Assembly: GCA_947305865.1 (NCBI GenBank)
Contig: CAMZEU010000002.1
Span: forward strand, 1,019 to 65,018
DNA from: an uncultured Clostridia bacterium
GTDB lineage: Bacteria > Bacillota > Clostridia > Christensenellales > CAG-917
Direction: 5' to 3'
DNA length: 64,000 nucleotides
Shown here: positions 17,903-57,285 of the stretch, in pieces
How positions within the stretch are numbered: the stretch's first letter is position 1
Layout: each line of letters begins with the position of its first letter
Notes under the pieces: generated by a model
What the model was told of the DNA's origin: nothing
Database searches by the model: none
Seen by the model: only the letters and a program-made list of their open reading frames with translations
Translations under genes and position numbers: made by a program

Positions 17903-17921
17903 TAGATTAGTGAGAGAAATA

Positions 17922-20949: not shown

Positions 20950-20969
20950 CACGGAAGTTTACTTCCGTG
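20950..20969. promoter_or_regulatory. 20-bp inverted repeat in a divergent intergenic region (candidate operator)
   Basis: CACGGAAGT-TT-ACTTCCGTG: perfect 9-bp arms, between the minus-strand start at 20913 and the GH20 promoter. Confidence 0.35.
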
Positions 20970-20984
20970 CAATAATGGTCTATA

Positions 20985-21012
20985 TTGACGGAAGACATTG
21001 ATGTGGTATAAT
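20985..21012 (+). promoter_or_regulatory. promoter of the GH20 / PIG-L gene pair
   Basis: TTGACG (20985-20990), 16-nt spacer, extended -10 TGgTATAAT (21004-21012). Confidence 0.55.
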
Positions 21013-21033
21013 TAATTTAAATTGGAGGAAAAT

Positions 21034-22554: not shown

Positions 22555-22600
22555 AAATTGCATAATTATAAATATTTGTGCATAAAAAGAGGTAGTGTTT

Positions 22601-23635: not shown

Positions 23636-23704
23636 ATGAAAAAACTTTATTTACTTTTAATCATCGTACTATTGATTACATGTTGCTGTACATTGTTTGC
23701 ATGT
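23636..23704 (+). other. Sec/SPII-type signal peptide with lipobox-like L-F-A-C (Cys23)
   Basis: MKK + LYLLLIIVLLITCCCTLFA + C, then NKKTNVEPQ. Positively charged n-region, hydrophobic h-region, Cys at +1 (codon 23702-23704). The -2 Phe is non-canonical, so this needs LipoP or SignalP. Confidence 0.6.
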
Positions 23705-41700: not shown

Positions 41701-44700
41701 TAGCTTCACAGAGCAAATGAGCACATTCATTGGAAAAGACTTCAACTTCATCGCAACATCATTAACAAAGCAAGGATATAGCTTCGATACAGTATTTGAT
41801 ATTTCAATCGAGTTAAAGGCATATCTTGATCTTGCAAGATTAGTAAGTGGATTAACTTCTACATCAGGCGACAAAGATATTCTTTCAATGCTCGTTGGAA
41901 CAACAATTTATGCAAAGATTGGATTGAAGTCCACATATCTTGCAACATATAACCCAGAACAATTAACAGACTGGGATGCAACAACAATTATCTTAATGGC
42001 TAACTTGACAGAAGATAATGATAGCAACGTATTGTTGAACCTCTATCTCGACCTCTCAGACTTGTCCAGACAATTCCCAGCATTAGGTGACGTATTTGAC
42101 AAAGTCAAGTATGAAGGATTGAATCTCACAAAGATTATAGGTTCTACATCCGCTGAATCAGCAATTGCACGTGATTCTGTTGCAACATCTGCAGCATTAG
42201 AACTCAATACAGCTGATGCAGGTGATGTTGATATGGGATTACTTGGAACATTCGATGCAGGCGCAACAATCTACTCATTACTTGATGCTCTTGTTGGCAG
42301 AGTAATGATTACAAACGATATGCTTTCAATTGGATTCAAGGAAACATTACTTGGTTCAATCGTTGAAATGATTTCTTCAAGATTAACAGATGAAGAAAAA
42401 TCCAAGTTACCAACATTAAGAGTAACAAACGGCAAAGATACTTCTGGTATCACATTAGACTTCAACGATGATGGACATATCGCATTGTATGCTGTTATAG
42501 GTATTGAATCTGGTATTCTTTCATACAGCAATGATTCTGCATATACACCATTAAGTGACGTCAAGTATGCATTTGATGATAAGACAGGTAAGTATTATGT
42601 TGCTCCAGCTGCAACTGGAAAGAATACAAACGTAATGCTCAGTGATGGTGAGTACTCATTAGTTGAATATGTAGACAAACTTGACAGATGGGCACTTCAA
42701 TCATACGTTGCACTTACTGCAGAAGAAAAGGCAATTAGAGCAGCTGTTTATACAACAGATGATGGCATCAACTATACACAAAGAGAATATAATGGAAACA
42801 ACGGCTTAACATATTACAAGTATGTTGGTGGAAATTATGTTGAACTCAGATATGCAGATAAGTTATTACTTGAAAAGAAGTTATATACATTATCCGCTTC
42901 AGTTTACACTGAATACACTGGTGTAGTTGATCCAGCTAATACATACTATGTAGAAACAGGCAACTTCACATACACAATGGTTCCACGTTATATAGCAATA
43001 ACAAATGCAGAAAGAGCAATTCTTGAAGCAACATTGTATACAAAGTCTGGAAACAACTATGTAGTAGAGACAGGCGCATTCGATGCAACAAAGACATACT
43101 ATATTGATTCAGGTATCAACAAAGTTGAATTAACAGCGGAACAAAGATTAATTCTCTTAAAGGCAACATTCACAACTACAAACGGTACAACATTTGTTGA
43201 AACAGCATTTGATAAGACAGATGAAACAACAACATATTACTTCTTAGATAGTTATGAAATGATAAGAGAAATTGATGGCAATGGTTCATATCTCTATCTT
43301 GGTTACTACAACATTGAATTAAAGGCTTCTAACATTTATGCAAGAATTAATAAAGATTTCAGTGTTGATGACAAAATAGACAAAGATGGAATCCACTATG
43401 AAGTATATAAGGATATCACAAAACTCACATTGAACCTCAATATTGAATTTGATATCTCATTATATGGCAATAGTGATCCAGGAATCACAGGAAACGACAA
43501 CGTTGTTGACTTAAGTCAAATTCTCAACCTCGTAGCAAACCTCATTAACAATGAGGACATTGTTGAGGCATTTGAAGGTGCAGAGTTATACACAAGATTC
43601 AAGGGTGATATTGGTAGCGACAGCAACCCAACATATAACTTATCACTCAACGTCTTTATAGACATTGCAGACTTCAAGAACTTACAAGCAACAATTGAAC
43701 TCAAGCAATACAAGAAACTTGGTCCTGGTGAAGCATTCACAGGCGAGTTCATGCCAAACCCAGTATTAAGTGCATACTTATTCAATGACAACATCTATGT
43801 TGATGCACACGGTTTACTTGGTGATGCAGGGTTGATTTCAATTGATAACCTTGGTCTTGCTAAGTTACTTGATACAATAGAGATTGCTGGAACAAAACTT
43901 GGAACATTCCTTGGACATGATATGTCAGCTTATGAAGATAAGAGCAGTGGAGAAGCTACAACAGCTGCTCATGTAATGGATAATGTTGAAGATGTATCAA
44001 CAGTATTCGGCACAGCTGCTTACTTACTCATGACAACATTCCCAAGACAATTCTTCATCCAACTCAACTCTGCAGCAGTTAATGCAATCATTAACAGAAT
44101 TAGAGAAGCACAAGGCAAAGCAAATTCCGATTACTTACCAGACATCGGTGCATTACTTATATCTTTTGATTCTGATAATACTGATGAAATACTATATACT
44201 AATATATATGCTAAAGTAACAGATAGCTTCTATCTTGCACTTGAAGCAAAGAAGGTAACATGGAGCAGAGAGAAACAACCATGTGAATTCAATATTGATT
44301 CTATATTACAAGTTTCATCATACACATCATCTAACACAATCTTCACATCTGGTAGCGACAAGCAATATTACAGATATGAAAAGGCAACATATATTGCATT
44401 AACAGATGAACAAGCAGCACAATTAAGTGCAAATGGAACAATCATCTATAAGAACTATACAGGTGATGCAAATAGACCAGCATTCATTGCTAAGTCAGAT
44501 ATCAACTTTGTAAAAGTTGGTAATAACTATGAATATAGCAGTACTGGTACTCCAATTTACATGACACCTGTTAAGTACGAAAGTGCAGCGAACTACACAT
44601 ACTTCAGATATCAACAAGACAACTATATCGAAATCCCAATGTATAAAGGAGATAGATATAAGCTTGTTGGTTCAACATATGAACTTGATCCAAAGGGTAC

Positions 44701-47700
44701 ATATTACTATGATAAAGAAGAAGAAATATATAAGACATTAGTTGGTGGTACTCTCGAACAAGTTAAAGCAGGTACAGCACATTATCAAAATAACTACACT
44801 GGTACAATTTATGAGAGCAGATTCCAAAGTGTATATGATATTGGAACAGGCGACATCAAGCTTGAAACATTGAGCTTAAGTGTAACAGGTGAGTTGAACC
44901 TTACATCCGACGGAATCGTAAAGGGACAAACAAATTACGATAAGACATTCTCTTACTGGATTGCTAAATTCCTTGCGGATTTACTTGGAGAATCAGATCT
45001 TGCTGGTGGTATTCTCAAGGGTATTACAGCAGATAAGATTTCACTCATCTTCCCACAAAAGACAATTAACGTTGTTATCAACATTATGGCTGATGTCAAT
45101 ATTCCAGCAATTGTTAAGTATGGTATCTCTGGTATTCTTTATAGTGATATCTACTTACAACTCATTGAAGGTGCTCCAATTAACAAGACCTTCATGGAAA
45201 TATACTATCTTGGTTCTTCAAGATTAACACAAACTGGTAACATCTATACATTGTCACCAAATGGAACAATCTTCTCAGATTGTATCTACCTCAACCTTGA
45301 AGGTTTAGGATTAGGCTCTATCGCATTCCACGGCTTAACAGGAATACTTGGAGCAAAACAACCAGATTATGTAACAGCATCTACAACTGCAGAAACAGAG
45401 GCATCTGAGGCCGTCACAAGTGCAGCTTCAAGCTCATTGTATCTTGAACTTGGTATTGAACATGGTGGATTCTCACTCAAGCTTGAAAAGAGTGTTATCG
45501 ACTTCGCATTAGGATTACTTGATCTTGATATAGATTTAAGTGAGATGCCATTACAATACATCGAATTAGAAAGCAGATATTCATTAGATGTTGGTGTATC
45601 TGATTTATCAATAACAGCAGTTCTTGACTCTGTTGGAACAATGCTTGGTATCAAGCTTGGTAACTTTGATATCAGCTTCTCAGAAAGAAAACTCGACCTT
45701 GAAGCAAAGATTGCAGCATGTCAATATGGCTCAGCTGGTATCACATATTCAAAGGTAGCAGGTATTGGTGCATTACTACAAAATGTAATTGACTCACTCA
45801 ATGTTGGATTAACAATTCACATTGATAGAAAAGTTGATACTATTAACTTAACAACACTTTCATGGTTCACATGGAAAGGTAGAAGAGACAATAGATACAC
45901 ATCAGTTACATTGAATGGTATCAAGACGAAGAGTTCAATAGACGCAGAACCAGCATCATACAAGTTGAAGTTCAGTATTAGTGCATTACATCCATCTGCA
46001 GCTTCAAGCCCAATGACAGCAAACCTTTACTTCTACAATAATGACTTAGTATTAGGTGGATTCGATTTACAAACAACAATTGCTGATATCTTAGGAAACT
46101 TCTTAAAGAAGATTGACTTAGGTAGTGGTAAACCAATGTTTGAATTCGCTAACGTAATGGGTGCAGATACTGCTGAATATACATATCCAAGCAGCACAAC
46201 AACAGATCCTGCAAAGGATACAACAACTTCAGCTGCAGACCAATACAAGAATGGTAACTATAAGTATGCAGCAAACCTTGAAGGATTAATTGCTGGATTA
46301 GAATTAGACTTCTGTACATCCAACAACTATCATCCATACTATTCAGGAATGGGAACAATCGATGGAAGCGCTGCAACAGATATGAAGTATGTTTCAGTAC
46401 ATATTGAATTTGGTAAGCAAGCATTTAACGAATTGTTAATATTCTTATATACAACAGTTCTTAGCTTATTACAAGGTAAGGAAGGCGAAGAGAGCAAGGG
46501 TATTGATACAAGCTCTAACTGGGCGGATAGCGATGATGCATACTTTGTAAAAATGTCTGCATTCAGTTGGACTTCAGATGGTGAAGGTAGTGAATCACAA
46601 CTTGATAGTAACGTAGATAGCACTTACGGTGTATCTGGTGGCTTGGCAAAGATGTTCGAACATATTGATTCTCTTACAACAACAGCTGCAAGAGTAAACT
46701 TCTTAGAGCCAATCATTAAGTCAATACCAGTTGCATTGTTACGTACAATTCTTTATAACGTTGCAGGTGTAAGTGCTACATTGATTTCTCTTGCAGGTAC
46801 AGTAGCAGGTGGCACACTTGGTAACTTCTGTAGATTAGTTGGTGCTATCTTACCATTACCATTTGCAAGCATGAGCAGTTCAGTTGCAAATCCATCTGCA
46901 CATATCTACATTGATTTGGATCCAGATCCATCTGTATATAACCGTTCAGGATACACAATGCATCCAGGTGTACAAGCAATTGAGTTATACATCAATGCAC
47001 AAAAGGTAGTACTTGGAAGCCCAGCAAACAGCTTAAACGGCACACAAATCTACACATGGGGTGGCTACAGCTCATACAGAGGAGCAACTGACACATCAAC
47101 TCAAACAAAATACACAATTCCAAGTCTTGGCAATGGTGTAACAAATATGAGCAATACACAACAAATGTTGGTATTGAGAATAGACCCATACTCAACAGAA
47201 AGTAATTCTATCACAAGTCCATTACTTGGATTTGACGAAGCAGATGCTGCATCTCTCATCGGTACAGCACCATCTGAGATTTACATTACAGATCCAGCTA
47301 ATAGAAGTGGTTATGTAAAGGTTGGTAGTTCAAGTCAAGACTTTGTATTAAATGCAACAGCATTCCAAGACACATCTATCTTCCCAGCAAAGGCTAACGT
47401 AACATTCACCAATGGTGAACCAAGTTCAGATACTGGTGGCACAGTAGTTGTTTGGGATGCAGGTGGTGTAGACTTCACACCATATGAAGGTGAAATTGGC
47501 GAGAAGTTCGCAGGTTATGTATATGGATATGCACTCAACATCTGTGTTGCAGCAGTTCCTGTATATGTAACAAATGACTATGGATTCAAGTCAATTAAGG
47601 CATATAAATATGATGGAAGCACATGGAAGACAGAAGCTATCACACGTGATATGCAAAGCAATGTAGACGACCTCCCAGATATGGTCAAGATTTCATTCCA

Positions 47701-50700
47701 AACAGGTGGTACTTATACATTCGCAACAATTGCAAAAGATATGAATGGTGCTGACTTACTTGCTAGATACGATACAGAAAATGATGGCAAGACTCATGTA
47801 ACTGGTCCAGCATATAAGACACGTGTAAGATTTGATAGTGATGGAAACGTAATCTTAACAACAGGACTTAGCACAAATACAACAACATCCACATGGTATT
47901 ATCAACATAAGGATGAAGATGGTGTATTGTACTATACAAAGGGTTCAGCAACAGGAGCAAGAATTGAAGTTGATTCAATTACAGATCCATTATATGCATT
48001 GTTCGATAGTTCAAAGAACACAGCATTTAATAAGTTGAAACTCAGCAGAAATTACCCAGCAGGATCCATCTCATGGAACTATGGAGACTACAAGTATAAC
48101 TTCCATAATGCAAGTGTACAAGTTGGCTTCTCATATTCATGGGGCTTCACATCACAATCTCAAAAGATTACTATCCCAATGGTAAATTACGAGATTACAA
48201 AGGCTGGAGTAACTAAGTACTTACAAGATTCAGCTGGACAAAACTATGTAAAGACATTCACTAACTTGAATTCATTAACACTTGCTAATGTAATTACAGA
48301 TACAAATAGCAATGGAAAGATTGATAAGGCTGAATTTGTAAGCTACATCAAGTCATTCAAGTATGTAAGTGGTAAGTATACAAGCAACAAGTCATTCTCA
48401 GGAATCTCTGCAGAATGGGATACATCATTACTTGAAGATGCTATTGACGATATCACAGAAGACGGCGTAATTAAGTTCTACGAAGGTCTCAATGTAACAA
48501 TTCCATTGTACATTGGTGGTAAAGAATACAAGCTCAAGCAATTCAAGACAGCAACTGGTGATTCATACGGATTCAATGGTAATGCAGATGAAGATACAGT
48601 TTGCAAGACTCCATATGCACAAGCTGGATATGTATCACAAGTAATTTATGTAACTATTACTGTATCTTCAAGCAAAGTAGATTCTATTTCTTCAGAATTT
48701 ACATTCAACCCATATAGCTCAGATGATATCGATGCAACAGCCGGTATCAACACAGGCAGTGGATTAGATATTACAACATCATTTGGTGATCAAGTAATGG
48801 TTGTAATGAAGGGTGCTAAGAAAGCAACATCCATCTCCTATGCAAGTGAGACAGCCAAGATTTCTGGACCATACTATGTAGCAAGAAGACTTGCAACACT
48901 CAATGTAAAGGAAACTGACTTAATCGTTCCTGGCACAAATGGTACAAAGACAATGGCTGAATTCATCGAAAGATATGTAAGCTATGATGGACTTGAAGAA
49001 AATGACTACAGAGTATATGTTAAGTTAATAATCGGTAACAGCAGTACTGGTGGTGAACAAGTATTCTACAAGCAAGTAACATTTGCTAAGTTAACACCAA
49101 CAGTTGTAACTAGAGATGTAACAGATACATTCAACCCATATTGGTATAAGGGTGAAGATGCTAACCATGTAGGTTACAACACATTGAATGTATCATTCAA
49201 GGAAATCTCTGGAACAGTTGCTATGACTCCAGATTGGTCACAAGTCAAGTACTATTCAGACGCTGGACGTACAAAGGAAATTAGCAACATTGCTAAGGGC
49301 GGAATTGTTTATGCAACAGTACCTGCAAAAGTAACAATTGGAACAGGAACTGAAGCAAAGGCACTTGCTCTCAAGTACGTAAAAGACGATGATGGTAACG
49401 AATCATATGTTCCACAAACAATAGTTGTAAAACTCAAAGTTCAAACTAAGAGTGTAAAGGCTATCACATTCTATAAAGATGATGTCTATGGAACAAATAC
49501 AATTATCAACAACAGTTCTACATTGTTGAATGTTAGCAACTACAGTTCTAGTGTTTATGCTCCACATGTTTCACAAGATGGAACAGTATACAGCATTGAT
49601 ACAAAGGCATACTCATTAAACCCAGAGTATTACTTCCGTGCTCCAGATCAAACAGCAGATGACTATAAGACAATTGTAGAAAGAGCCTGGAACTGTATCA
49701 GAGGTATTACAGGATATAATACATCACTCATTAGAAGACAAGTTCAAGAGAATTGTACAATCGTTTGTGTTGAAGAATACAATGGTACAAAGACATTGGC
49801 TATCATCAGTAGTTGGGATTACACAACATATACAAACAATGTAAGTGAAAAGAGTGTAAGCGCTAGAATCTCATTCACAATTGGTAACCAAGTATTCTAT
49901 ACAACACTCTTAACACCATCTTACAAGATTGACAATGTTGAGTTGTTGAACGAAGACGAGACTCCATTCACAGGCTTTGCAGCAGATGAAGATGAATTAG
50001 TCTATGATGCACGTACAGCATGGACAGCTCCATCTAAAGTAAAGGCTACAATTGATTGGAAGTATGCCTTCAATAATGTAACAACAATGAATGCACAAGA
50101 TGTATTAAGTGCTTACTTCCCATATCTCACAAATGCAAGCCAAATCAAGTACTATAGAGAATTGAATGGCGCATATGTTGCAACAGAAGATTGGGTAAAT
50201 GAAGTATATTACAAAGTTGCAAGTGCATACTATGTAACATATGACAAGTATGTTGAAGTAAAGGGCAATGTAGCAATTGACGATGCTAAGAAGTACAAGA
50301 TTGGAACAATGACTGTAGCAACAGTTGCAGATGCAGAATCTACCTCATTGTATCTCAATACAGCAGGTCAATTCACTCCATTGAATGAAGCTGAACCAGC
50401 AACATATATTGAGAACAACCCAGGTGCAGTATTTGTATTCAGTACAGAAGGCGATACTTACTACAACATCGTAGAAGAAAGCACAACTGGATTATATGTA
50501 AAGATTGCTGCAGCAGGAGAATACATTGACTTCACAGATTACTGTGCATTCGAAGAAATAATTGCAAAGACATATACTGGCGAAAACGTTTATGTAAAGA
50601 ATGGTGGTGTTTACACAGCAGCAAATACAGCTCTATTTGTAAAAGCTTATGATTATGACACAATCTCTGATGTAAGCGTAAGATTTGTTGGTATTAATGG

Positions 50701-53700
50701 AACTATCGAAGCTGGTGTAGTACCAAGCCTTGCAGACTTGTTCGAAAATGCAGAAGGTAAGTTCGTATGGATGTACGTAGATATCTTCTCAGAAGCTTCA
50801 TTAATTAAGCAAACAAGAGCATACAAGGTCAAGTTCGAACATCTCGATGACAAGATTACAAAGATTGAGTTCAGCTATGATGACTTAAGCACAGATGATG
50901 ATCTTGCTAAAGAATATGGTATTGTAGACTTTGGCACAATGCCAACTAAGGCAAGAGTAACAATCGGTGAAGGTGATGATACTATGACACTCGAAAGAGT
51001 TGTATCTTGGACATTGTTCGATACATACACCACAGAAGAGTTAACAAATAGAGTAGTAACCAGAGAAGGAAGATTAGGAACAGGATTGCCATTCGCAGAT
51101 GGCGCTAAGTTGTTCATCGGTGGAGCAGAAGCAGATGCAACAAGTTACACATTGAGTGGAACAACAATCTCATTCAACACAACAATCATTCCAGCAGATA
51201 AGGTTGAAATAGTAAGTGGTCTTGATACAACAACATGGAACGATGCAGATGATAAGACATTCACATTGAAGTCTTCTGAATTCGCAAACGGATTGCCAAC
51301 AACTGTAACATATTACACAACAATTGGTGGCGTACAAGAAACCAAGGTTGTAACAATTGAGTGGTTGAACGTTGTAGACTTAACACCAGTTACATATACA
51401 ACAAGCGGTGTAACAAATAGAATCGTATATGCTAAGGCAATTTGCGATAATATTTCAATACTCAATATTGTTGACTTAACAATCGAACCAATCAATGTAT
51501 TAGGCATTGAAAGCATTAATAATGAAGTAAGATTCGTATATGACCCATATGGAATCATCACAGATGCAGACCTTAATGCAGATGAAGAAAAGGTATTATT
51601 CAACGATGGTGACACAGTTGGTGTACAAATCAGCTATGTAAGTGGTGAAGATACAATCACATCAACAGTAGATGTTGTTGTAAACATCTTAGATGATACA
51701 TTATTAAAGGCTTCTAGAGACGCTACAAAGTGCAATAGCGTATTTGGTAAGACAATTGACCTACCAATCAGATACAACTTCGCAGACGGCACTGTAGTTG
51801 ATGCAACAATTGCTGTATACATTGAAGACAGAACAATTAAGAGAGTTGAAAATGCTGCATTACGTTCAATGGTTGTAGATCCTTATTACTATTCATCATT
51901 CGGTACACTCTTCGATGAGAACAACGAAATGATTGAAGGTGGATACGGATATCCAGAGAAAGTAAGCATGACAATGAAGAATAGACTCGCAGACAATAAT
52001 GCTACATTAACACATTATGTAACATTACCAAATGATTCAATCATTGCAGATGCACTCAAGAAGGGTGGATACATCAATTCTTCATATCAACTCTTAGTTG
52101 GATACAAGGTTAACGATGATGTATATGCATATCAATACATCACAATGCCAATCTCTGTAATTAACCGTACAATCGCAAGTGAATTCTTTGTAATGCCAGA
52201 TAACTACAAGTTATCTAAGGTAACAGAGTCTTCATCCAAGCTCACATTGACATACGTTGAAGAAACAAGTGGAAACTTAATGAGATTCGTATATTCAAAG
52301 GGATCCAATAGACCAGAAACAATATACTTCGATAATGCATTCGACTTCGATCTAGATATCATCCCATCTCAAATGAACATCTCATTCTCCAATGGTGAAG
52401 GTAGAAACTACTACATTAGAAAGACTGCATTAAGTGATATTGCTTCAGCAGAGGATGCAAAGAAAGTTCAAAGAGCAGATATGACTATTGAAGTATTGAA
52501 TAAGAATCCACAAGACACAGACGATGTCGTAGTACTTGATACATTCAAGATTGAAATTGTACGTAGTGCAAATACAGTAACTAAGTTCAATTCTGATATC
52601 GTATATGATGATGAATTCGCATACAAGTATGTATTTGATCCATACACAAGCAATTATGCAGATAGCATCTACAACACAGAGAACTATAACACTGCAGGTG
52701 AAAAGAACTTCGCTGAAACTGGTATATTCTATGTAGATGGTACATATGTATTAAAGGCAACTTATGATGATAAGTATGCAAATGTAAGATACATTACTAC
52801 ACCAATTGCAAGTATGGCACAATACTCTTCATGGGTAGCAAACGGAAAGACTGCAGATGGCGAATATGTATACAAGGTATTGAAAGATGGTGGAAATAAC
52901 ACAATCTACTACAGATACAATAGTGATACTAAGTCATACTATCCAGTTGCAGAAGCACAAGACGCATACGTATTCATGTATACAATTGCTACAACAGTAA
53001 ACCTCACATGGGATACAAGCAAGGTTAGATACACATATGCAGGTGGAATTCACAGTGCTACAGTAACAATTACTGGTTCTAATGGCATTGCTAAAGAAAC
53101 AATGCAAGCCCCACTCTCATTCGTCGACAGAACAATCGACAACGATACAGATGGAAAGGGCGGAATTAAAGTTGGTTCAAGTTATGTAACATCATTGTCA
53201 TTCGACCCATGGACAACTACAAACCATGAATATGTAGATTATCTCAATGCAAGAAATAATGATGGTTATGCTGGAGTTCGTTACTATCTCGCAAAAGATG
53301 GTTCATACGAAAAGGCAACATTATACTATGACTCTGTAAGAGATACATACTACAAGTTGAATGGTAATGCATATGCATCAACAACAGAGAAGACTGGTGC
53401 AATAGATATTAGCGATGCTAAGTATAAGGCAGTAAACTATGTACTCGGATACGATAGCAACCATACTGCAATCACAGAAGAAAGATTTGTTGAAATGACA
53501 GATTACGAAATCTATGGAACATACAAGTACTTAAGCAATACTGGTAAGGTTTACTTCAACGGTACATCAATTAATTACTCAAGTGTAACATGGAACGTAT
53601 TAAGTGTCACAATAGACTATGCAGGTGGTGAATACAAGGCATATGCATACATCAATGGATTTGGTGAATACAACTTCAACGGAAATAAGGTTGGAACACA

Positions 53701-54937
53701 ACGTGCAGTTATTACAATTACTGTATTAGACAGAACTATAACAGCTCTCTCAACAGCAAACGAAACAGCTATTAAGTCAGCTGCTCCAAGTTACTTGTCA
53801 AGAGGCACAACAGCTGCATCAAGCATTACATCAATCAATCCATATGATTATCAAGCACCAACAATGCCAACAAGCTTAACTGTAACAACAGCACAAGGCA
53901 CAAAGACATTCTATTCATCTGACAATGCAAATTATGAAAGCAATAAAGAGTACAAGTTAGTATGGAGTTATTCTAAGTTCAGACCAAGTTATCTCGGTGG
54001 TGTAGTATACATCAACGCATTGTTAACAGGTCCAGATGGAAGCACACAAACATATAGATTACCATTTGCAGTAGAGAAGATGCTCGCAAATAATATCAAT
54101 TCTGTTTATGCTTCATCTCCAAGAACAACTGGAAACTATCCATTCACAAGTACTGTAACAACAGCTGGTAAGGCAAATTCAAGTTATGAAGTAGACCCAT
54201 ATGCTCCACTTTCACAAACATTGCCACAGAACTATAACGTAACATTCACTAAGTCAAAGATTTCATCTATCACAATTGGTGCAGATGGATATCCAACCAA
54301 TGATTACACATACACATCAGATGGTTCACAAACAATGTTATTCGGTTACGCTAAAGTAAGTATGCCAGCAACATTCGCATTGAAGTTGAATACAGACGGA
54401 ACAATTACAGATGGATTAACAAGCAATGATGATAGAATTGCAACAATCTATCTTGGATCACAACAACGTATCACAGCAAACTTCACATTGAAGTCTAGCA
54501 AGACAACAAGCACAACAATTCCAAGCTATACATCCGGAAATATTGCAAACTTCAGATTACCATTTAAACAATCTGGACAAACAGTAAACGGAACAATCGT
54601 ATGGATTGGAACTGCAGTACCAAAGGACTATGAAGGCAACAACAAGTTAACAAAGGCTCAAATTGTAACATTCTCAGCTGGTACTCCATTGTTAAATGGT
54701 TCTGTAAACAGCATCGCACTTCCAGATAAGGGCAGAAAGGTTGTTTACACATTAACAGCAGTTGTTGGTGCATTGGTAGACAAGAATGGTACATTGCTTG
54801 ATACAGAAACATTAACAACATCAAGAACCATTAATGGAATTACATTCCCAGCAGGAACAATTCTTCCAAAATATACTGGAGTTGGATCTAAGTACACAAT
54901 TACAGTAAATCAAAATGGTACAGTTAACGTAGGCTAA
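23636..54937 (+). CDS. giant (10,433 aa) predicted surface lipoprotein of unrecognised family, highly repetitive and modular
   Basis: Uninterrupted 31,302-nt ORF in AT-rich DNA. The other five frames over this span hold only ORFs of 126 aa or less. It has its own promoter, SD and flanking hairpins. N-terminal signal peptide with a lipobox-like LFAC. Internal repeat families are described in separate features and findings. Confidence 0.9.
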   Translation: MKKLYLLLIIVLLITCCCTLFACNKKTNVEPQVIVVDPITQDTAVNTVSSAYAWEKVKNAALNTNTSTAGFLNFNTILGFDFKKNGNGNKFVLQVAGSINQEDTPNSRIYIGLDKITVDNVQSRVAALYYVDGWCYADFTGVKKGAEIVKTDKIDLAYFADRIHNMFAGTSVADLFYNTLLGLDLGSFIDLMSGQTLDGLLTSMLLPETIDIIDLGNGEEQIKFPFQLEDLMDMVLGLLSGVLTDDIKDLVFQVLGLDLSRIDAIVGSEVKVVLDTKIKNGVLKSLELQLDAPLDSIKTDTAGTYGYFTEDISLSVGALQISKGVDPNIYFSDEVGAEEDPASYVLLPDALKEVAKEYSVLDFDITLNAAINTSEKKITIQDIDSALGKLLSNLLNETIPANSPIWGTNINLATTNYALTIDIKGTLNLTDNSKTELEIKLRDALSRGPEERMAIYYVGATKTLYVDISNIIGELGRYKITDLDIAEIVNDALSGINIKSLIENLLSGIGSSEALSEAEIRTYEELLTKLEDGTIPLKISHATTASGTVTSVLDLIIDIVNSIKIEKEDAPYDNLLNIRSLLISISNDAIDYISELIFPATKKDDDGNEIANPLYGSKLPIAGFDISYYNYGVAKEKLINIDLRLGDAQGIFDGMSIGIGINAKFGTTTCAAKSTISRIGDSNFVSLGSIGKLSEISQVLENINLKNIYLKLETQVGFYIAPGTLTDIQVNSLEDYLIKILFDIADKVNASLLLTIEANLDISDGLNSILNSVAKIELYDTSKTIPETGEYKKILGLYLEDKVIYLDAESIGLNKICVDISSFVGDLFKKDEEASSASDALTAADDGGFDFIGLIAAILGDVTVSRDYIELGLATNLISKVFEALGVDISNILTVSLFDADGSGGLRITFKDGLDLSQLEIKLFATLNNQLELNLTIGGFDMAINSDTLHVDNKDEFIDIFMAPYVWLDVEGGMSIKISEATLDLSQNEMITNAMAEAGYDVADLSSSAIQILEAIDVEYDMKIQASIDLWPLISYLNGDKDIYTDKNNSQLLLEIEKISQSLDRKLLIGLYYIGGVLYLDATNFGIDRVAINIDLLELVINLILKDKYVEIKGDDLKPVAEGGYAGPRYVESKDADGNSVYTRDDENGTFKYILDTIRINPSSEASSAGDPDPQLTPVEKQKLAIVIQAEISSTAFMVKLVDGLTQILNEKLGLDLPGIALWLKLAIAPDYVEDANGIYRFVEDKNGEYFVNNKYGNFVVAEPSFTGTKYKKMPNFLSKLGVSAHFGILDENGDDDNGIDVSISKLELQIGELKQVAADNVTNNADKYETITLLDENNNIAIEQAFIELTGAINLSAQGTNGGYEDWTVGDWISAVVSQDSKTIQSILHGLLVRIGVNHNISTTIGFRIALLARFNWENGFDINYVLSHSDLRIELYKGEYVAGGNNTNLITLSLLYQGDVAGVPSSTLFLESDLQIIQNTKIYLDGINLVTLLGLDKSKEEENAEPEQTATPAPSTDPAPSTDEQTSSEEESGGLLSGLTGKGGILSDIPALLNSTIYSVTASMDEIKISFAKNLAAFIVSLIVGDGNDQYIELDDGELNTVGLEDRYAVVYVADDYGNFYQHTNGNYYKIKDATFDGQRYEPRFVSLANNLYKKVDDTYTLLTAEELYTYSGDRYFEYAGNKVKFVGNYYKFTVSDEGTDYTITNIQGFATPLTAAEESDVFKGTRYRADYIALANNFYTKSGNNYALIENIYTFSGEAYYKIGDEYTLFDGTYYKLQSDGSYAVISDEDRKTFDGALYAVNYVKDNNGTYKYVYAMYDYIDQDDGSRYKWLKDFFPINPEDSFLSLEWANTYRLEFSLGITPVALGLELSKIRLSLSDTASVLESPINKAEYNNVLDFEDLTISAAIEINFSLAEASEDNPYAIGDYISVFLAELALKFGITVESEIGVNWELRLDANLNTKDSTKAQILLELRDIEKSKMILGIYLVNSNLYVDMGFLSDYDFVIEGTNFAVLLTNVLNQVLGGMGISFGGTESEATTAAETNSVDAGIILNLAERDIQLKITEAVIFAIISAVIGTGDASNAVDLLQQLGLKLSIDLDLDLRNVALALKIDSSILDPKNSISEVDINGNTVYTTEVYRDFFNMELNIVAPKISFAPTDADIAAIKESIEKAIYTGILLVELTDEEKDHGYGKWVKEPVLLSPKTDYVVGNPIVGTYYTMFDGYFYPASGYFKAEEHYYRIDETTNKTEAIYKLLTARGFGQTVDEEFDFDRFDVFNNNPILSFDLDLFVDLFVSTTFKYEGEKAKNYSPSQRYTKRLSDGRFVQDDDGLYVQQTLSMDELLDALVSLPFVQNLIVSLENNESVGEILGPVVSSLAKQLSFQALYQAPLDLNIVLSIKGNIDLGVLGISSLLTTGDLGELNFDIQTLLSAINLGIEISFNKGDSKSKIGIYLVNGNLVIDLSDLSGPTIKASLFDILSMFDVDASTILNNSEATTSADEEESTIEKVARILNGIVDAVIFETGTQTIPFLNESYSTLDDVKIRFNKNIVANLLELIFKIPFKAEGYELDESNSGLYLFFHDSRFANDPTLVNSEGINPFKGWALEVEASLSNGMYFDMATGIGATIRIGKEAKELLSQENLNAAVEITDYLENLFGTFGLIDKVGTYVTVSTYESEYVDAQDRIDPTSRYNKVVDGYTQVGGLVGEYVLLVGEEDYISAKRFLPLNQYAIYFENGVVADVDNTLRYTRTEVKEGEQTVGYTYEQNSAGEYVLYATQKHVLKSLYLKANDIETLPQTMATFNPTYKYVQNNEGDFVFIKEGEYISAKDYAKYLGQERVAALVRYDREPVYAQSNVGEFVKLVDEYMPVAAYIAFTNVVDVPKEIRYNREDGKYVQKDDGSLVHIDVLYVNITRYCLLNGVTEDSIDRRTRYNFDGYRYSRDDENGEYVRAESLEYNGIDERGIVVDYNLYSTVVADTARYRYIKTVVTQNNQGEYVKLPKGTIISLEDYAYYTGTAIADIPLSIRINADEEPDQNGTRVKTTSEMIVTLAQYCVRNSISDANIDSMVPISIRAAVKEVYDVWADEDGDGYKDWTDSDNDGKDDKTGIAVTTKYTLADYPYTFIPAEYSSQNIYLSLNARLFFETVDKKSVNIGGLLTNWLGDAIIELTSGNIFKDGIGARIAINLDIASLDLSNGLNSILNSDFSNIEIGLELLETDENGQIIVDEYGNTKQKGGLYLYHGTLYLDGMGIFPDANQYSYIPNFMELIQNVINYDFSFQELIDGISNEIGLGTTSAESSTSSEEDRNAILELLTTDTSVQLVLTKSLIAVIIAALLPEVGSVAEVFDQFSLTLGIDFGSSNYKMFSDWRYRDVNGGVYESDAKYYNVEYTTLVEGTDYNVGDIISVVAYTKPGSEYIPAYGCFETSTTYYTLRKTALTVGLDYQLETSINSGVYELVSTETALDYVLDDIAGSKQRYAISDVQKTTYTDVAAFTAKAGYVLGEDANGYKIFSYLTQAQIHNIITNKGSVDVYRLTFVENNAGLYMYVEDDFGQYYACILPLSERYTYHSSIDYELTNGFDEGNESRIPTDIQSEYVDVVKVASQQGQFARAYVENRWLYVDTERYPLMYSFNGEKFYKNASDFYDLYNTTPGFSYTEGLSMIVNTTTKESYTYVYYYNNYYVVSGLYNKLTGYTTDSKGVYYSKLHVFTNIYEYGVTLAFDINGVHAGLTINGLKIDFGAGHSILPQRIIKQQTEGTYTLGIRYKEIYGQAAYDAVQKKDKYKLTKYGYVQDDYGNYIRHDYEYCPLVIFYDSTIELSFSVELELSIDEGKIDIGPLFEDLLGDLDGVSIEIPATTKGYSSAHFRLDASLKIDMYDLSNSELVMELYSIGITGYETLWLGVYYIADVIYINAAVLGLPKMSITSFGIMTYLNTILKDIIGEFYNENVLPDAEDSSSEAGIASDAITANTANGEIDVSVLFDRRTLSVQVANTFIRWALGLVVIDKDSGLTIADLVSQHLIAGVGLDMRLEDGFNLDLNVALGFKGDRFTIIREDQEELAKNKFYAFDRNELGDYVLEDGVLRVIKPSEKVDALSRYTLNENTTLVEGKKKVYFDTYAEAEAAGNYVAYLSAAKSEANMEEYDMNLDLYVGIKNLNIAFNSVHEFKLTAEDIGEYSEVGELEHISLQEVIDITTLFKADSNIDLAEILTYFFPEVDADSIIAEITAESDSHGDIHRIIEAEINMDIKIAALMNYFRQVFTMGTANFNSDFSISDLISIIKAVLNKDDNLNVYQILDDVLSYINTSVVIRTRCGYDELTGQYTDTHNWISIFFVGGEFELLQENNFGVYGYRDDKTTFVDKEHRYSHYFKAADNNGPYYYNADTKKYDLITENFEEDVDTYYYDSTYCYLNENGEYYRHNGGLYVDLSYFNIPSLYLQSTSIEHLFESLSLNDTINGLLGGSEASTPEEKVVASTESDATAAVSFPLLNEEVSGYIRAFLYGLKITSQLTSVIVQPDYINQILKLVMGEDGAIKFSYLDNQEYKYDKDGNVQHASSLTIYADRSAYNFITSSYAFASEINDSNARFLATYNQEEGQYIINPIDYIITMAEFTAEFGTTFTTDPVTAEISNPEVDRRFENAPIRCDSIGNPDVDGDHVKFTRYEYQEKKNLSEAELDYYVAANGLFFDVDMTDTYVYVGNGFTYFGQAEPDASTTGIFNDYTSNFAYFYGIVGNEYVKLTLKDNRYLYIGSSDTPYTGVDVYVSSGKMSKLSKVTKTERRYTYTDVETYYTPVKFTTGDWVLQSDGSYKLYAGMSIVEQSEVDANDRYNMMPMYLTGSVVEVSTDTWQKYRYRTLVNSEYDSIVNHGRIYVDGVKRYMDMIIFTENMAYVTYQAKTTVDGPVRTMYIPEMMNNLLIRPTTYTPVSVTAAEIIAKAKIGTDYCFYGYDLKKYEFVALAWDTTNNYWYLSTDTEHTRYTGALYMLSIHDEYNPIITIPASNVKNDSLMSLQLYLWEHTITIDINVPKIDAVDFTYLTKTDYEAINGPDSAPKAALFSREPQYIYTPIDPVSFTYDNTEEYFFINQGEYYELSDASIYTYGGGTYTLVGTNDFTHGDAWDIKYYIGIPEEDPTIYKLVEKKKVYTRAISKYVYTKDESGEYVRVKIDSSVTYSRFAYSKISEDEFVNGYIAAAANYVYDANTYSYVVSTDPSATLTYKDILFVYDETTYHYVSIRDYEAEHSGYDFTSTTIYKARGIEYVSTDDVYYISLSLDGSMYMNSAKVYKNLADFATSKKSSMYNSKTIWKKDSVAIENANGIYVKVIDNYYGAGDGYYMPVNSYKALTDKPVTDGKFYNLRAQAGNYVRATDGNWYCADNNPAANGHNIIDMLYSEDLIVDTDDIYVFQQGGYAKLGSVLDKKDYVKTHESTQYYLMYSSGATSTLNKVLSGIVGDLGTELDFTSELSGEIEFKITLSYGGTLLLGTNEETGEFQFGLDVFNLELAIDTWRRTNHVDDNTLTHVFGLYYDRDDSVGKSGLYLDLSYFLNEEAKVYIDLSDCPLEDFINSKLYYEKVETYYEATAASEDTDATTASSTVLSGGNMTAAYFNIYTSAFGLSVTSGFLKVLLNNLITGFEQYAGYIPNIEIFIKGELDPYRLAVGLTLDDDEGNALVEAGVRLNGITGDYNTGTVLDFGSLAKYDSIDMTSRDYIFYYGNFVRVDKLGTVSSYDSSVQYYGKDGERKGYVTIASDNYGVAGSWYYTEDGIEAVSGARYNNKVYTRSNKIRVNEDYKQALKLIETNTYASYNFKESKDENDDVIDFYGLVNGNFIKVDYDVYNLVTDNTGLWYYTLDNESACKLAESRFRGEVYFRTTAYGEENYETISVKYNKTIQGWQYVKYDAYGNEITDAYGNVMYYSYPGDVTFVYSGALYRVTPVYGVVDGVESQLTYDAVNGWLYAGNPYDGEIYKKDEAGLATMDYVKIMGLNLEDMFAEGFSLDNLDLGALLGDLKSFELGLNIDFQLTFADIISFTEQMSTFIGKDFNFIATSLTKQGYSFDTVFDISIELKAYLDLARLVSGLTSTSGDKDILSMLVGTTIYAKIGLKSTYLATYNPEQLTDWDATTIILMANLTEDNDSNVLLNLYLDLSDLSRQFPALGDVFDKVKYEGLNLTKIIGSTSAESAIARDSVATSAALELNTADAGDVDMGLLGTFDAGATIYSLLDALVGRVMITNDMLSIGFKETLLGSIVEMISSRLTDEEKSKLPTLRVTNGKDTSGITLDFNDDGHIALYAVIGIESGILSYSNDSAYTPLSDVKYAFDDKTGKYYVAPAATGKNTNVMLSDGEYSLVEYVDKLDRWALQSYVALTAEEKAIRAAVYTTDDGINYTQREYNGNNGLTYYKYVGGNYVELRYADKLLLEKKLYTLSASVYTEYTGVVDPANTYYVETGNFTYTMVPRYIAITNAERAILEATLYTKSGNNYVVETGAFDATKTYYIDSGINKVELTAEQRLILLKATFTTTNGTTFVETAFDKTDETTTYYFLDSYEMIREIDGNGSYLYLGYYNIELKASNIYARINKDFSVDDKIDKDGIHYEVYKDITKLTLNLNIEFDISLYGNSDPGITGNDNVVDLSQILNLVANLINNEDIVEAFEGAELYTRFKGDIGSDSNPTYNLSLNVFIDIADFKNLQATIELKQYKKLGPGEAFTGEFMPNPVLSAYLFNDNIYVDAHGLLGDAGLISIDNLGLAKLLDTIEIAGTKLGTFLGHDMSAYEDKSSGEATTAAHVMDNVEDVSTVFGTAAYLLMTTFPRQFFIQLNSAAVNAIINRIREAQGKANSDYLPDIGALLISFDSDNTDEILYTNIYAKVTDSFYLALEAKKVTWSREKQPCEFNIDSILQVSSYTSSNTIFTSGSDKQYYRYEKATYIALTDEQAAQLSANGTIIYKNYTGDANRPAFIAKSDINFVKVGNNYEYSSTGTPIYMTPVKYESAANYTYFRYQQDNYIEIPMYKGDRYKLVGSTYELDPKGTYYYDKEEEIYKTLVGGTLEQVKAGTAHYQNNYTGTIYESRFQSVYDIGTGDIKLETLSLSVTGELNLTSDGIVKGQTNYDKTFSYWIAKFLADLLGESDLAGGILKGITADKISLIFPQKTINVVINIMADVNIPAIVKYGISGILYSDIYLQLIEGAPINKTFMEIYYLGSSRLTQTGNIYTLSPNGTIFSDCIYLNLEGLGLGSIAFHGLTGILGAKQPDYVTASTTAETEASEAVTSAASSSLYLELGIEHGGFSLKLEKSVIDFALGLLDLDIDLSEMPLQYIELESRYSLDVGVSDLSITAVLDSVGTMLGIKLGNFDISFSERKLDLEAKIAACQYGSAGITYSKVAGIGALLQNVIDSLNVGLTIHIDRKVDTINLTTLSWFTWKGRRDNRYTSVTLNGIKTKSSIDAEPASYKLKFSISALHPSAASSPMTANLYFYNNDLVLGGFDLQTTIADILGNFLKKIDLGSGKPMFEFANVMGADTAEYTYPSSTTTDPAKDTTTSAADQYKNGNYKYAANLEGLIAGLELDFCTSNNYHPYYSGMGTIDGSAATDMKYVSVHIEFGKQAFNELLIFLYTTVLSLLQGKEGEESKGIDTSSNWADSDDAYFVKMSAFSWTSDGEGSESQLDSNVDSTYGVSGGLAKMFEHIDSLTTTAARVNFLEPIIKSIPVALLRTILYNVAGVSATLISLAGTVAGGTLGNFCRLVGAILPLPFASMSSSVANPSAHIYIDLDPDPSVYNRSGYTMHPGVQAIELYINAQKVVLGSPANSLNGTQIYTWGGYSSYRGATDTSTQTKYTIPSLGNGVTNMSNTQQMLVLRIDPYSTESNSITSPLLGFDEADAASLIGTAPSEIYITDPANRSGYVKVGSSSQDFVLNATAFQDTSIFPAKANVTFTNGEPSSDTGGTVVVWDAGGVDFTPYEGEIGEKFAGYVYGYALNICVAAVPVYVTNDYGFKSIKAYKYDGSTWKTEAITRDMQSNVDDLPDMVKISFQTGGTYTFATIAKDMNGADLLARYDTENDGKTHVTGPAYKTRVRFDSDGNVILTTGLSTNTTTSTWYYQHKDEDGVLYYTKGSATGARIEVDSITDPLYALFDSSKNTAFNKLKLSRNYPAGSISWNYGDYKYNFHNASVQVGFSYSWGFTSQSQKITIPMVNYEITKAGVTKYLQDSAGQNYVKTFTNLNSLTLANVITDTNSNGKIDKAEFVSYIKSFKYVSGKYTSNKSFSGISAEWDTSLLEDAIDDITEDGVIKFYEGLNVTIPLYIGGKEYKLKQFKTATGDSYGFNGNADEDTVCKTPYAQAGYVSQVIYVTITVSSSKVDSISSEFTFNPYSSDDIDATAGINTGSGLDITTSFGDQVMVVMKGAKKATSISYASETAKISGPYYVARRLATLNVKETDLIVPGTNGTKTMAEFIERYVSYDGLEENDYRVYVKLIIGNSSTGGEQVFYKQVTFAKLTPTVVTRDVTDTFNPYWYKGEDANHVGYNTLNVSFKEISGTVAMTPDWSQVKYYSDAGRTKEISNIAKGGIVYATVPAKVTIGTGTEAKALALKYVKDDDGNESYVPQTIVVKLKVQTKSVKAITFYKDDVYGTNTIINNSSTLLNVSNYSSSVYAPHVSQDGTVYSIDTKAYSLNPEYYFRAPDQTADDYKTIVERAWNCIRGITGYNTSLIRRQVQENCTIVCVEEYNGTKTLAIISSWDYTTYTNNVSEKSVSARISFTIGNQVFYTTLLTPSYKIDNVELLNEDETPFTGFAADEDELVYDARTAWTAPSKVKATIDWKYAFNNVTTMNAQDVLSAYFPYLTNASQIKYYRELNGAYVATEDWVNEVYYKVASAYYVTYDKYVEVKGNVAIDDAKKYKIGTMTVATVADAESTSLYLNTAGQFTPLNEAEPATYIENNPGAVFVFSTEGDTYYNIVEESTTGLYVKIAAAGEYIDFTDYCAFEEIIAKTYTGENVYVKNGGVYTAANTALFVKAYDYDTISDVSVRFVGINGTIEAGVVPSLADLFENAEGKFVWMYVDIFSEASLIKQTRAYKVKFEHLDDKITKIEFSYDDLSTDDDLAKEYGIVDFGTMPTKARVTIGEGDDTMTLERVVSWTLFDTYTTEELTNRVVTREGRLGTGLPFADGAKLFIGGAEADATSYTLSGTTISFNTTIIPADKVEIVSGLDTTTWNDADDKTFTLKSSEFANGLPTTVTYYTTIGGVQETKVVTIEWLNVVDLTPVTYTTSGVTNRIVYAKAICDNISILNIVDLTIEPINVLGIESINNEVRFVYDPYGIITDADLNADEEKVLFNDGDTVGVQISYVSGEDTITSTVDVVVNILDDTLLKASRDATKCNSVFGKTIDLPIRYNFADGTVVDATIAVYIEDRTIKRVENAALRSMVVDPYYYSSFGTLFDENNEMIEGGYGYPEKVSMTMKNRLADNNATLTHYVTLPNDSIIADALKKGGYINSSYQLLVGYKVNDDVYAYQYITMPISVINRTIASEFFVMPDNYKLSKVTESSSKLTLTYVEETSGNLMRFVYSKGSNRPETIYFDNAFDFDLDIIPSQMNISFSNGEGRNYYIRKTALSDIASAEDAKKVQRADMTIEVLNKNPQDTDDVVVLDTFKIEIVRSANTVTKFNSDIVYDDEFAYKYVFDPYTSNYADSIYNTENYNTAGEKNFAETGIFYVDGTYVLKATYDDKYANVRYITTPIASMAQYSSWVANGKTADGEYVYKVLKDGGNNTIYYRYNSDTKSYYPVAEAQDAYVFMYTIATTVNLTWDTSKVRYTYAGGIHSATVTITGSNGIAKETMQAPLSFVDRTIDNDTDGKGGIKVGSSYVTSLSFDPWTTTNHEYVDYLNARNNDGYAGVRYYLAKDGSYEKATLYYDSVRDTYYKLNGNAYASTTEKTGAIDISDAKYKAVNYVLGYDSNHTAITEERFVEMTDYEIYGTYKYLSNTGKVYFNGTSINYSSVTWNVLSVTIDYAGGEYKAYAYINGFGEYNFNGNKVGTQRAVITITVLDRTITALSTANETAIKSAAPSYLSRGTTAASSITSINPYDYQAPTMPTSLTVTTAQGTKTFYSSDNANYESNKEYKLVWSYSKFRPSYLGGVVYINALLTGPDGSTQTYRLPFAVEKMLANNINSVYASSPRTTGNYPFTSTVTTAGKANSSYEVDPYAPLSQTLPQNYNVTFTKSKISSITIGADGYPTNDYTYTSDGSQTMLFGYAKVSMPATFALKLNTDGTITDGLTSNDDRIATIYLGSQQRITANFTLKSSKTTSTTIPSYTSGNIANFRLPFKQSGQTVNGTIVWIGTAVPKDYEGNNKLTKAQIVTFSAGTPLLNGSVNSIALPDKGRKVVYTLTAVVGALVDKNGTLLDTETLTTSRTINGITFPAGTILPKYTGVGSKYTITVNQNGTVNVG
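28541..29160 (+). repeat. tandem aromatic repeats (87 aa, 73 aa, plus a partial third copy) inside the giant ORF
   Basis: ATFDGQRYEPRFVSLANNLYKKVDDTYTLLTAEELYTYSGDRYFEYAGNKVKFVGNYYKF (from 28541) aligns with DVFKGTRYRADYIALANNFYTKSGNNYALIENIYTFSGEAYYKIGDEYTLFDGTYYKL (from 28802). A third copy, TFDGALYAVNYVKDNNGTYKY, starts at 29021. Confidence 0.75.
31701..32870 (+). repeat. about 8 degenerate ~45-aa RY...GE[YF]V repeats inside the giant ORF
   Basis: SRYNKVVDGYTQVGGLVGEYV; LRYTRTEVKEGEQTVGYTYEQNSAGEYV; YKYVQNNEGDFV; VRYDREPVYAQSNVGEFV; IRYNREDGKYVQKDDGSLV; TRYNFDGYRYSRDDENGEYV; ARYRYIKTVVTQNNQGEYV. Each is followed by an aromatic ...Y..Y... segment. Confidence 0.7.
42710..43260 (+). repeat. 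four ~45-55-aa repeats (LTAEE-x-IL-x-AT ... YT..G.NY..ETG...TYY) inside the giant ORF
   Basis: LTAEEKAIRAAVYTTDDGINYTQREYNGNNGLTYYKY / ITNAERAILEATLYTKSGNNYVVETGAFDATKTYYIDSG / LTAEQRLILLKATFTTTNGTTFVETAFDKTDETTTYYFLDS, plus a more diverged copy in between. Confidence 0.7.
47260..54934 (+). repeat. C-terminal array of ~110-250-aa beta-sandwich-like units delimited by [DN]-P-[YW] and DRTI-type motifs
   Basis: [FVI]-[DN]-P-[YW] read in frame at 48704, 49130, 51542, 51878, 52637, 53204, 53837 and 54194. IEDRTI 51821, VINRTI 52157, FVDRTI 53120, VLDRTI 53723. Recurrent internal pattern: W-x-x-S/L...Y-x-GG...V-x-I-T-G. Confidence 0.6.
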
Positions 54938-57280: not shown

Positions 57281-57285
57281 TTAAT

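Follow-up and report, generated by a model that had tools for sequence, protein, structure and literature searches.

We examined a 64,000-nucleotide stretch of DNA (hereafter the window) from an uncultured Clostridia bacterium (contig CAMZEU010000002.1, positions 1,019 to 65,018; assembly GCA_947305865.1), which carries a giant open reading frame (ORF) at positions 23636..54937 of the + strand. The gene encodes 10,433 amino acids (aa) in a single uninterrupted reading frame, in DNA of low GC content (34-38%), and the feature under study is its C-terminal 2,558 residues (aa 7876-10433; nucleotides (nt) 47261-54934, in frame). No Pfam family was matched anywhere in the 10,433-residue protein, CWB2 and SLH included, and NCBIfam searches returned zero matches across 9,958 of its residues.

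The protein begins with a predicted lipoprotein signal peptide (23636..23707, + strand; MKKLYLLLIIVLLITCCCTLFA followed by the cysteine) with the lipobox LFAC, an assignment that is a pattern reading ([LVI]-x-[AGS]-C). A lipobox is likewise present in all seven of the full-length giants (7.3-7.9 thousand residues) among the ~79 family members described below, the N-termini of which read ...L[VIAT]AC[ND]. A signal peptide ending in a lipobox is what would be expected of a bacterial lipoprotein. The C-terminus reads ...TITVNQNGTVNVG, and inspection of the sequence there revealed neither an LPXTG motif nor a hydrophobic tail.

Motifs and repeat character of the C-terminal region

An earlier reading of the window made from its letters (the sequence-only reading) had described this region as an array of beta-rich units that open with a [DN]-P-[YW] motif and in several cases close with [DN]-R-T-I. 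All eight openings and all four closings were recovered within 3 nt of where they had been placed, as were the four peptides quoted as a recurring strand script. The region has 8 instances of the opening motif ([FVIYLM][DN]P[YW]), versus 0.31 ± 0.55 expected from 5,000 shuffles, and 4 of the closing motif ([VILF]x[DN]RTI), versus 0.02 expected; in the preceding 7,875 residues the former is found twice and the latter not at all. Across the family alignment the opening columns hold D or N in 47-100%, P in 43-94% and an aromatic residue in 79-100% of sequences, with the lowest D/N and P conservation at U13 (units are numbered U1 to U17 from the N-terminal side). The closing arginine is conserved in 76-100% of sequences at U10, U11 and U14. 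Most motif sites are kept in relatives of only ~29% identity. The DRTI closing of U13 is specific to the window.

The transition into the region is marked by a change in composition (from 9.8% to 5.2% for Leu and from 7.6% to 11.8% for Thr) and, as had been proposed, by an end to the acidic linkers, the last of which lies at aa 7247. The accompanying proposal that long Tyr-rich inserts also disappear did not hold, and blocks of 10-15 Tyr per 100 residues remain at aa 8801-9000 and 9701-10000. These inserts sit inside units: about 100 residues separate the DPY opening from the core in both U13 and U14, and a ~220-residue insertion (aa ~8800-9020, nt 50033-50695) splits U7. The latter is absent from four orthologs and is found in the window lineage only; its composition resembles that of the N-terminal Tyr-rich blocks, to which it shows no significant sequence similarity. 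The suggested unit length of 110-250 residues accordingly stands as an apparent length, the compact unit being 85-120 residues and the remainder inserts. The units appear that long because lineage-variable Tyr-rich insertions of 60-220 residues separate opening from core in several of them.

The N-terminal part of the protein (aa 1-7875; 23636-47260) has a different repeated architecture, without a Pfam or NCBIfam match. Leu-rich modules bearing the motif 'G[IL]Y[LY]..g.LY[LVI]D' (at aa 454, 796, 1070, 1988, 2454, 3239 and 3903) alternate there with acidic S/T/A/E linkers (aa 1161, 1502, 2035, 2494, 3295, 5574 and 7247) and with Tyr-rich blocks.

The repetition in the C-terminal region is old. 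Tandem Repeats Finder detected no tandem DNA arrays in the region, direct DNA repeats there are limited to short, weak ones, and sliding-window BLASTP of unit against unit gave a single marginal pair (E=0.003, 29-30% identity). The units are not recent duplications, and the region is not a stalk of near-identical repeats of the Rib, SasG or Ebh-like kind.

Relation of the units to the Big_4 family

The connection to a named domain family came from the position of U14. When orthologs of this unit (corresponding to window aa ~9962-10012) were compared with Pfam Big_4 (PF07532; gathering threshold 22.1 bits), matches emerged in many relatives, among them P0002 (33.1 bits), P0019 (29.0), P0022 (22.7) and P0005 (22.3) above the threshold and P0003 (21.8), P0004 (20.8) and P0018 (20.7) just under it. 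U14 is the sole position whose orthologs match Pfam Big_4. An exhaustive HMMER search with a profile of aa 9290-10433 against 1.84e9 representative sequences returned 84 proteins, of which ~79 are family members and five are outsiders (P0078, P0079, P0083, P0087 and P0089). The outsiders match the U14 core only (profile positions ~661-708), in 4-18 stretches each (E=3e-9 to 1e-4). Pfam classes each of the five as a Big_4 protein (42-752 bits), and three of them carry CWB2, SLH or LRR domains.

The outsider P0078 shares further details with the window. It is a 631-residue metagenomic protein (an unannotated fragment) comprising six compact Big_4 units of 85-95 residues, each of which opens with [FL][DN]P[YF]; three of the six close with V-x-[IV]-x-[DN]-R-x-[LV], similar to the window closing, and the 'Y-x-G-G', 'iG' and 'yQ' positions are also shared. 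The spacing from a closing to the next opening is ~13-17 residues in P0078 and 17 residues from U10 to U11 in the window. The P0078 units differ from those of the window in having no Tyr-rich insertions, and P0078 matches no part of the giant family profile other than the U14 core. Since its units share the opening and, in three of the six, the D/N-R closing, the motif pair can be read as the junction signature of a Big_4 sub-type. In this arrangement V-x-V-x-D-R-T-I would be where the final strand of one unit finishes, h-[DN]-P-[YW] would lie in the first segment of the next, about 17-36 residues after the closing motif, and the opening would be followed by a Big_4 core of the form 'h-P-x-x-h-x-V-x-F..G', 'V-x-W', 'Y-x-G-G-x-Y-x-A' and 'Q-x-h-x-V-x-V'.

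The region was divided into 17 segments. For 16 of these (all but U7, which has no aligned homologs) we assembled window-anchored alignments with 12-58 sequences from the family. Each segment (all on the + strand) was compared by hhalign with classical Big_4 repeats and with the P0078 units, alongside 34 reversed-sequence controls, and cores were also located by scanning a merged unit profile, with alternative alignments, over the whole region. Six segments gave hhalign probabilities above 90%. U4 (48698..49123; aa 8355-8496), which opens with FNPY, matched the P0078 DPY-type Big_4 units at 97.2% (score 61.5; reversed control 10.1), and U8 (50903..51232; aa 9090-9199; TMPTKARVTIGEGD...VVSW) matched classical Big_4 repeats at 94.3% (score 40.7; reversed control 8.3). 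U11 (51869..52192; aa 9412-9519) opens with VDPY and closes with VINRTI, the R of which is 100% conserved, and matched the P0078 units at 92.9% (score 40.7). U13 (52628..53194; aa 9665-9853) runs from FDPY through a ~105-residue Tyr-rich insert (aa 9671-9775) and the core LTWDTSKVRYTYAGG to FVDRTI, and matched the same units at 93.7% (score 45.7; core aa 9779-9844). U14 (53195..53827; aa 9854-10064) is built similarly, with FDPW, a Tyr-rich insert of ~100 residues, a Big_4 core at aa 9962-10044 and VLDRTI, and matched both references (98.6% to P0078 units, 96.5% to classical Big_4). U15 (53828..54184; aa 10065-10183) is compact and full-length (INPYDY...PTMPTSLTV...LVWSY...SYLGG...TQTYRLPFAV) and matched the P0078 units at 95.8% over 76 columns. 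The hhalign probabilities of U4, U11, U13, U14 and U15 to P0078 thus lie at 93-99%.

Two further segments matched classical Big_4 repeats at 72-82%. U1 (47273..47581; aa 7880-7982), which opens with ITDP, contains IFPAKANVTF and VVVWD strands and closes with VYVTNDY, reached 81.8% (score 32.0; reversed control 12.6; core aa 7912-7950), and U9 (51233..51532; aa 9200-9299; GLPTTVTYY...VTIEW) reached 72.3% (score 28.1; core aa 9219-9294).

Another six segments gave probabilities of 11-46%, yet with scores above all reversed controls. U2 (47582..48202; aa 7983-8189) has an insert between its LPDMVKISF strand and the W core (best hhalign score 22.3; merged-profile core aa 8144-8190, score 28.7). 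U3 (48203..48697; aa 8190-8354) matched the P0078 units at 45.7% (score 28.6; core aa 8245-8296), and U6 (49463..50002; aa 8610-8789) is weak (score 23.6; core aa 8725-8770). U10 (51533..51868; aa 9300-9411) opens with YDPY and closes with IEDRTI, motifs that are well kept in the family (opening D 100%, closing DR 87-91%); its hhalign score is 23.2 and its core (aa 9368-9407) scores 29.1. U12 (52193..52627; aa 9520-9664) carries a IIPSQMNISFSNGE strand without the DPY/DRT pair, and gave hhalign scores of 26.0 and 24.1 (core aa 9574-9653, score 28.0). U16 (54185..54532; aa 10184-10299) opens with VDPY, is atypical in having a long beta-hairpin, and scored 24.3 versus 18.1 for its own reversed control (partial core aa 10263-10291).

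Three segments did not exceed the controls in these per-unit comparisons. U5 (49124..49462; aa 8497-8609) opens with FNPYW, in which N, P and W are near-invariant across the family; its hhalign score was 17.0, and the merged profile found a full-length core at aa 8515-8611 (score 29.4). The other two are U7 (50003..50902; aa 8790-9089), with its Tyr-rich interruption, and U17 (54533..54934; aa 10300-10433), the terminal all-beta domain.

U3 also includes an EF-hand-like loop. The sequence DTNSNGKIDKAEF at aa 8222-8234 (48299-48337) fits the calcium-binding loop pattern D-x-N-x-N-G-x-I-x-x-x-E and matches EF-hand_1 at E=0.0091 (15.9 bits, under the Pfam threshold); it overlaps a short stretch (~8-13 residues, depending on the alignment) that is missing from the orthologs.

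We modeled the last four segments (aa 9854-10433) with AlphaFold2, using a 29-sequence alignment, and obtained a mean predicted local distance difference test score (pLDDT) of 76.7 and a predicted template modeling score (pTM) of 0.67. The alignment has little coverage of the Tyr-rich insert, and the model is read outside it. Model residues 110-580 (the last ~470 residues of the protein) are mostly above pLDDT 85 and all-beta apart from short linker helices. U15 is predicted at pLDDT >90 with six strands over a ~90-residue core (it is the sole unit for which strands were counted), consistent with expectation for an immunoglobulin (Ig)-like sandwich. U16 contains an unusually long hairpin, confidently predicted, and U17 forms a separate beta domain with pLDDT mostly 77-96. 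The high pTM of this four-module segment suggests fixed packing between the domains. The top matches of a Foldseek search with the model, non-significant at a TM-score of ~0.1, were to multi-Ig ectodomains (MDGA1, Sidekick, protocadherins) and complement MG domains, and a search of BFVD gave one unnamed phage protein (5.9e-4). The all-beta model and these weak matches are in line with the array of beta-rich, Ig-like modules put forward by the sequence-only reading; the Ig fold is consistent with the model, as a prediction rather than a structural demonstration.

Several results weigh against assigning the array as a whole to Big_4. In the window's own sequence Pfam found no Big_4 domain, whether in the 2,558-residue region (E<=1), in ten excised units (E<=10) or in aa 9854-10433 (E<=0.01). 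By HMMER, U14 alone of all the units is tied to the family; the others depend on hhalign probabilities, which are low (<=46%) for U2, U3, U5, U6, U10, U12 and U16. U7 had no unit match above controls with either hhalign or the merged profile, and U17 gave no hhalign signal to Big_4-type profiles. An earlier AlphaFold2 run on 1,144 residues with a 5-sequence alignment reached a pLDDT of 33, and that model was not used. The Foldseek search of the whole 580-residue model against the PDB returned no match at E<=0.001, although a search with the entire model mainly reflects how the domains are arranged relative to one another, and it is uninformative.

These observations raise the alternative that only one or a few units are Big_4 and the rest are one or more new types of beta domain, their strand motifs shared by convergence. 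The restriction of the HMMER link to U14, the weak unit-to-unit hhalign comparisons with 5-sequence profiles (best pair 74%), the failure of U5, U7 and U17 to rise above controls, and the atypical hairpin of U16, along with the lack of a significant structural neighbor in Foldseek, would all fit such a mixture. It is harder to reconcile with the behavior of the remaining segments, 14 of 17 of which outscore all 34 reversed-sequence controls (maximum 18.07). Counting copies with a unit profile, a check that the sequence-only reading had proposed, gave 15 colinear cores in consistent register from aa 7912 to 10291 (scores 22.7-120), versus one match at 18.1 in the reversed alignment and scores of <=15.4 for three N-terminal stretches; the merged profile is circular for U4 and U13-U15, from which it was built, a further point against the broad assignment, but not for the other eleven cores. 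In addition, the bona fide Big_4-scoring units of P0078 are bounded by the same opening and a similar D/N-R closing. We consider the mixture of one or a few Big_4 units with new domain types to be unlikely.

We conclude that aa 7876-10433 probably form a colinear array of non-identical domains, comprising ~16 Big_4-type Ig-like domains and one terminal beta domain. The motif pair had earlier been described as not matchable to a named family; the U14 orthologs, the profile retrieval and the hhalign comparisons instead point to the units being a divergent Big_4 sub-type. Placement of the units in an already characterized family, which the sequence-only reading had said would make them known rather than novel, is what was found for the domain type. 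Pfam listed no Rib/aRib, Cadherin, DUF5011 (PF16403) or Big_1/2/3 domain for the region or its units (aRib appeared only in the relative P0003, at E=0.012), and sequence searches of the PDB gave 0 matches with the family profile and 0 with P0078. The region is probably a known kind of surface-protein stalk in disguised form and not a new fold.

Classical Big_4 arrays of Clostridia surface proteins, such as those of P0079 (CWB2-anchored, 8 copies) and P0083 (SLH-anchored, 18 copies), offer a comparison. The window units share with them the core script (h-P-x-t-V-x-V...dG...V-x-W-d...G-x-Y...G...h-x-V) and the tandem layout in a secreted Firmicutes protein. Unlike the classical arrays, which have regular periods of 75-93 residues and often near-identical copies, the window units have less than ~20% mutual identity, extend to 100-300 residues through inserts, score below the Pfam threshold, and belong to a protein with an N-terminal lipid anchor rather than CWB2 or SLH domains.

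Relatives, synteny and selection

Word-indexed homolog searches found five relatives (~29% identity), each of them colinear with the protein of the window; the annotation of one reads 'Ig-like domain-containing protein' (Christensenellales bacterium). More broadly, relatives occur in 21 species-representative genomes at 24-29% identity. All of these are metagenome-assembled genomes (MAGs) from the gut, including Christensenella sp. UBA7571, UBA6880 and UBA7588, Firmicutes CAG:238 and CAG:475, and UMGS and HGM bins, with Hadza and rabbit samples represented. The C-terminal array is colinear throughout the family, and the last ~450 profile positions (U14 core to U17) are the most widely retained. 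We found no description in the literature of this giant lipoprotein family or of a DPY/DRT sub-type of Big_4.

At 17 MAG loci the giant gene is followed by a gene for an SPFH/zinc-ribbon protein (65-70% identity) and another for a zinc-ribbon protein (45-49%). The giant protein evolves much faster than its neighbors, as it is only 24-29% identical among relatives versus their 65-70%. The conserved adjacency with these two downstream genes (loci L001-L017 and L023) may reflect a functional linkage.

The coding sequence itself is constrained. Comparison with a 97%-identical strain gave a ratio of nonsynonymous to synonymous substitution rates (dN/dS) of 0.12-0.17 over 4,300 codons of the giant gene (0.14 for the C-terminal region) and of 0.02-0.07 for neighboring genes. 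The giant gene is real and under purifying selection, and is less constrained than housekeeping genes.

These data bear directly on the concern that the ORF or its repeats might be artefactual, either a chance long frame in AT-rich DNA or a misassembled repeat. Such a concern could draw on the low GC content and on the split ORFs seen among relatives in some MAGs; it is met by the dN/dS values, by colinear homologs in 21 species genomes and 84 representative proteins, and by the absence of DNA repeats able to misassemble. The near-identical strain (L023; 97% nt identity over 19 kb; ENA sample ERZ28633738) does show the giant gene as two ORFs, but the split is a scaffold gap of 10 N (L023 5824-5833, window ~47750) and not a mutation. 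An artefactual origin has practically no chance of being correct: conservation and selection rule out a chance ORF or misassembly.

In the Christensenellales MAG GCA_051883595.1 (L001 1-19447), the ortholog is present as two ORFs, encoding at least 5,555 and 3,148 residues and lying ~185 nt apart.

A further sequence resembles the terminal segments of the array. P0076 (L024 63-761), an ORF of 232 residues, comes from a metagenomic contig of 776 bp. Over its first ~58 residues it is 53-57% identical to Ruminococcus gnavus phage tail-fiber proteins (Pfam Prophage_tail, 30.5 bits), and its residues 68-214 are 28% identical to U16-U17 of the window. P0076 may be a mosaic phage receptor-binding protein or a chimeric contig, and the link to phage is weak. 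The terminal module of the window itself had no match among 50,697 phage records.

The genes flanking the giant ORF in the window are ordinary bacterial chromosome genes. Directly upstream (17910-23440) lie genes for a GH127-like protein, bPH_2, a GH20 beta-hexosaminidase and a PIG-L-type deacetylase. Downstream of the giant gene are an AEC-type transporter, an SPFH/Band_7 protein with double zinc ribbons and a 362-residue zinc-ribbon protein (both identified with Pfam and located, outside the array, at 56159..58374 on the + strand), and methionyl-tRNA synthetase.

Possible roles of the array

Giant adhesins such as Ebh, SiiE, LapA and MpIBP use dozens of Ig-like modules as an extender between a cell anchor and a distal region. 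Their arrays consist mostly of near-identical repeats of the Big_1/2/3, BIg or FIVAR-GA type, and the proteins are anchored or exported via LPXTG, a type 1 secretion system or a C-terminal transmembrane segment. The window protein differs from them in its N-terminal lipobox, its ancient non-identical units, and the different, unannotated architecture of aa 1-7875.

The giant protein would be anchored on the outer side of the membrane through a lipidated Cys24, and since every full-length relative retains the N-terminal lipobox, the C-terminus is expected to be the far end. The array would then be extracellular and act as a semi-rigid extender of ~60 nm (at roughly 4 nm per Ig domain), in which the conserved D-R-T and D-P-aromatic junction residues might stiffen the joints. 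The most conserved part, from the U14 core to U17, could form the tip of this extender and bind a ligand of host, dietary or microbial origin. A role for the protein as an adhesin with such a tip is plausible, and its fast divergence relative to its neighbors fits an exposed, interaction-facing protein.

The main functional rival to an adhesin is a scaffold or coat of the cell envelope, in which the array would serve as a spacer or sheath, perhaps together with the SPFH/zinc-ribbon neighbors, and would have no specific external ligand. We regard this as a genuine, though minority, possibility. The strict synteny of a Band_7/SPFH membrane-scaffold gene at the 17 loci points in this direction, as do the occurrence of classical Big_4 arrays in S-layer-associated proteins (with CWB2 or SLH) and the pTM of 0.67, which suggests rigid packing over a flexible tether. 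The contrast in identity between the giant protein and its neighbors is more typical of an exposed protein that faces interactions, however, and Pfam and NCBIfam scans detected no self-assembly or wall-binding domain.

The genes directly upstream suggest another role, in which the units would be carbohydrate-binding modules that hold glycan substrates for the adjacent GH127-like, GH20 and PIG-L deacetylase proteins. Beyond this adjacency, the classical Big_4 protein P0079 matches an arabinogalactan endo-galactanase (PDB 9fli, region 586-670, E=0.0024). Pfam and NCBIfam scans, however, detected no carbohydrate-binding module or lectin family, and the neighbors shown to be conserved are the downstream ones, which are not carbohydrate-active enzymes; we consider a glycan-holding role improbable.

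Returning to the adhesin, a more far-reaching version would hold that these lipoproteins of 7-10 thousand residues from uncultured gut Christensenellales are an undescribed class of commensal surface fiber, with insert-tolerant Big_4 domains as the rigid extender and the conserved, tightly packed U14-core-to-U17 segment as a new ligand-binding tip. We offer this as a speculation that we think unlikely to be correct in full; if it were, the P0076 fusion would suggest that the terminal module has been exchanged with phage receptor-binding proteins.

Where Pfam and NCBIfam leave the 10,433-residue protein blank, the analysis offers a domain-level reading for one quarter of its length, and it presents the motif pair as a probable signature of the junctions in a Big_4 sub-type that goes undetected at present Pfam thresholds. 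A dedicated model for a 'DPY...DRT' Big_4 sub-family would allow such arrays to be recognized automatically. The giant protein is the founding example of a rare, syntenic lipoprotein family restricted to uncultured gut Clostridia; its members come from Christensenellales-like MAGs of human, Hadza and rabbit origin, and very little is known of the surface biology of this group. Should the conserved terminal module prove to bind a ligand from host or diet, it would provide a handle on how these uncultured gut Clostridia colonize.

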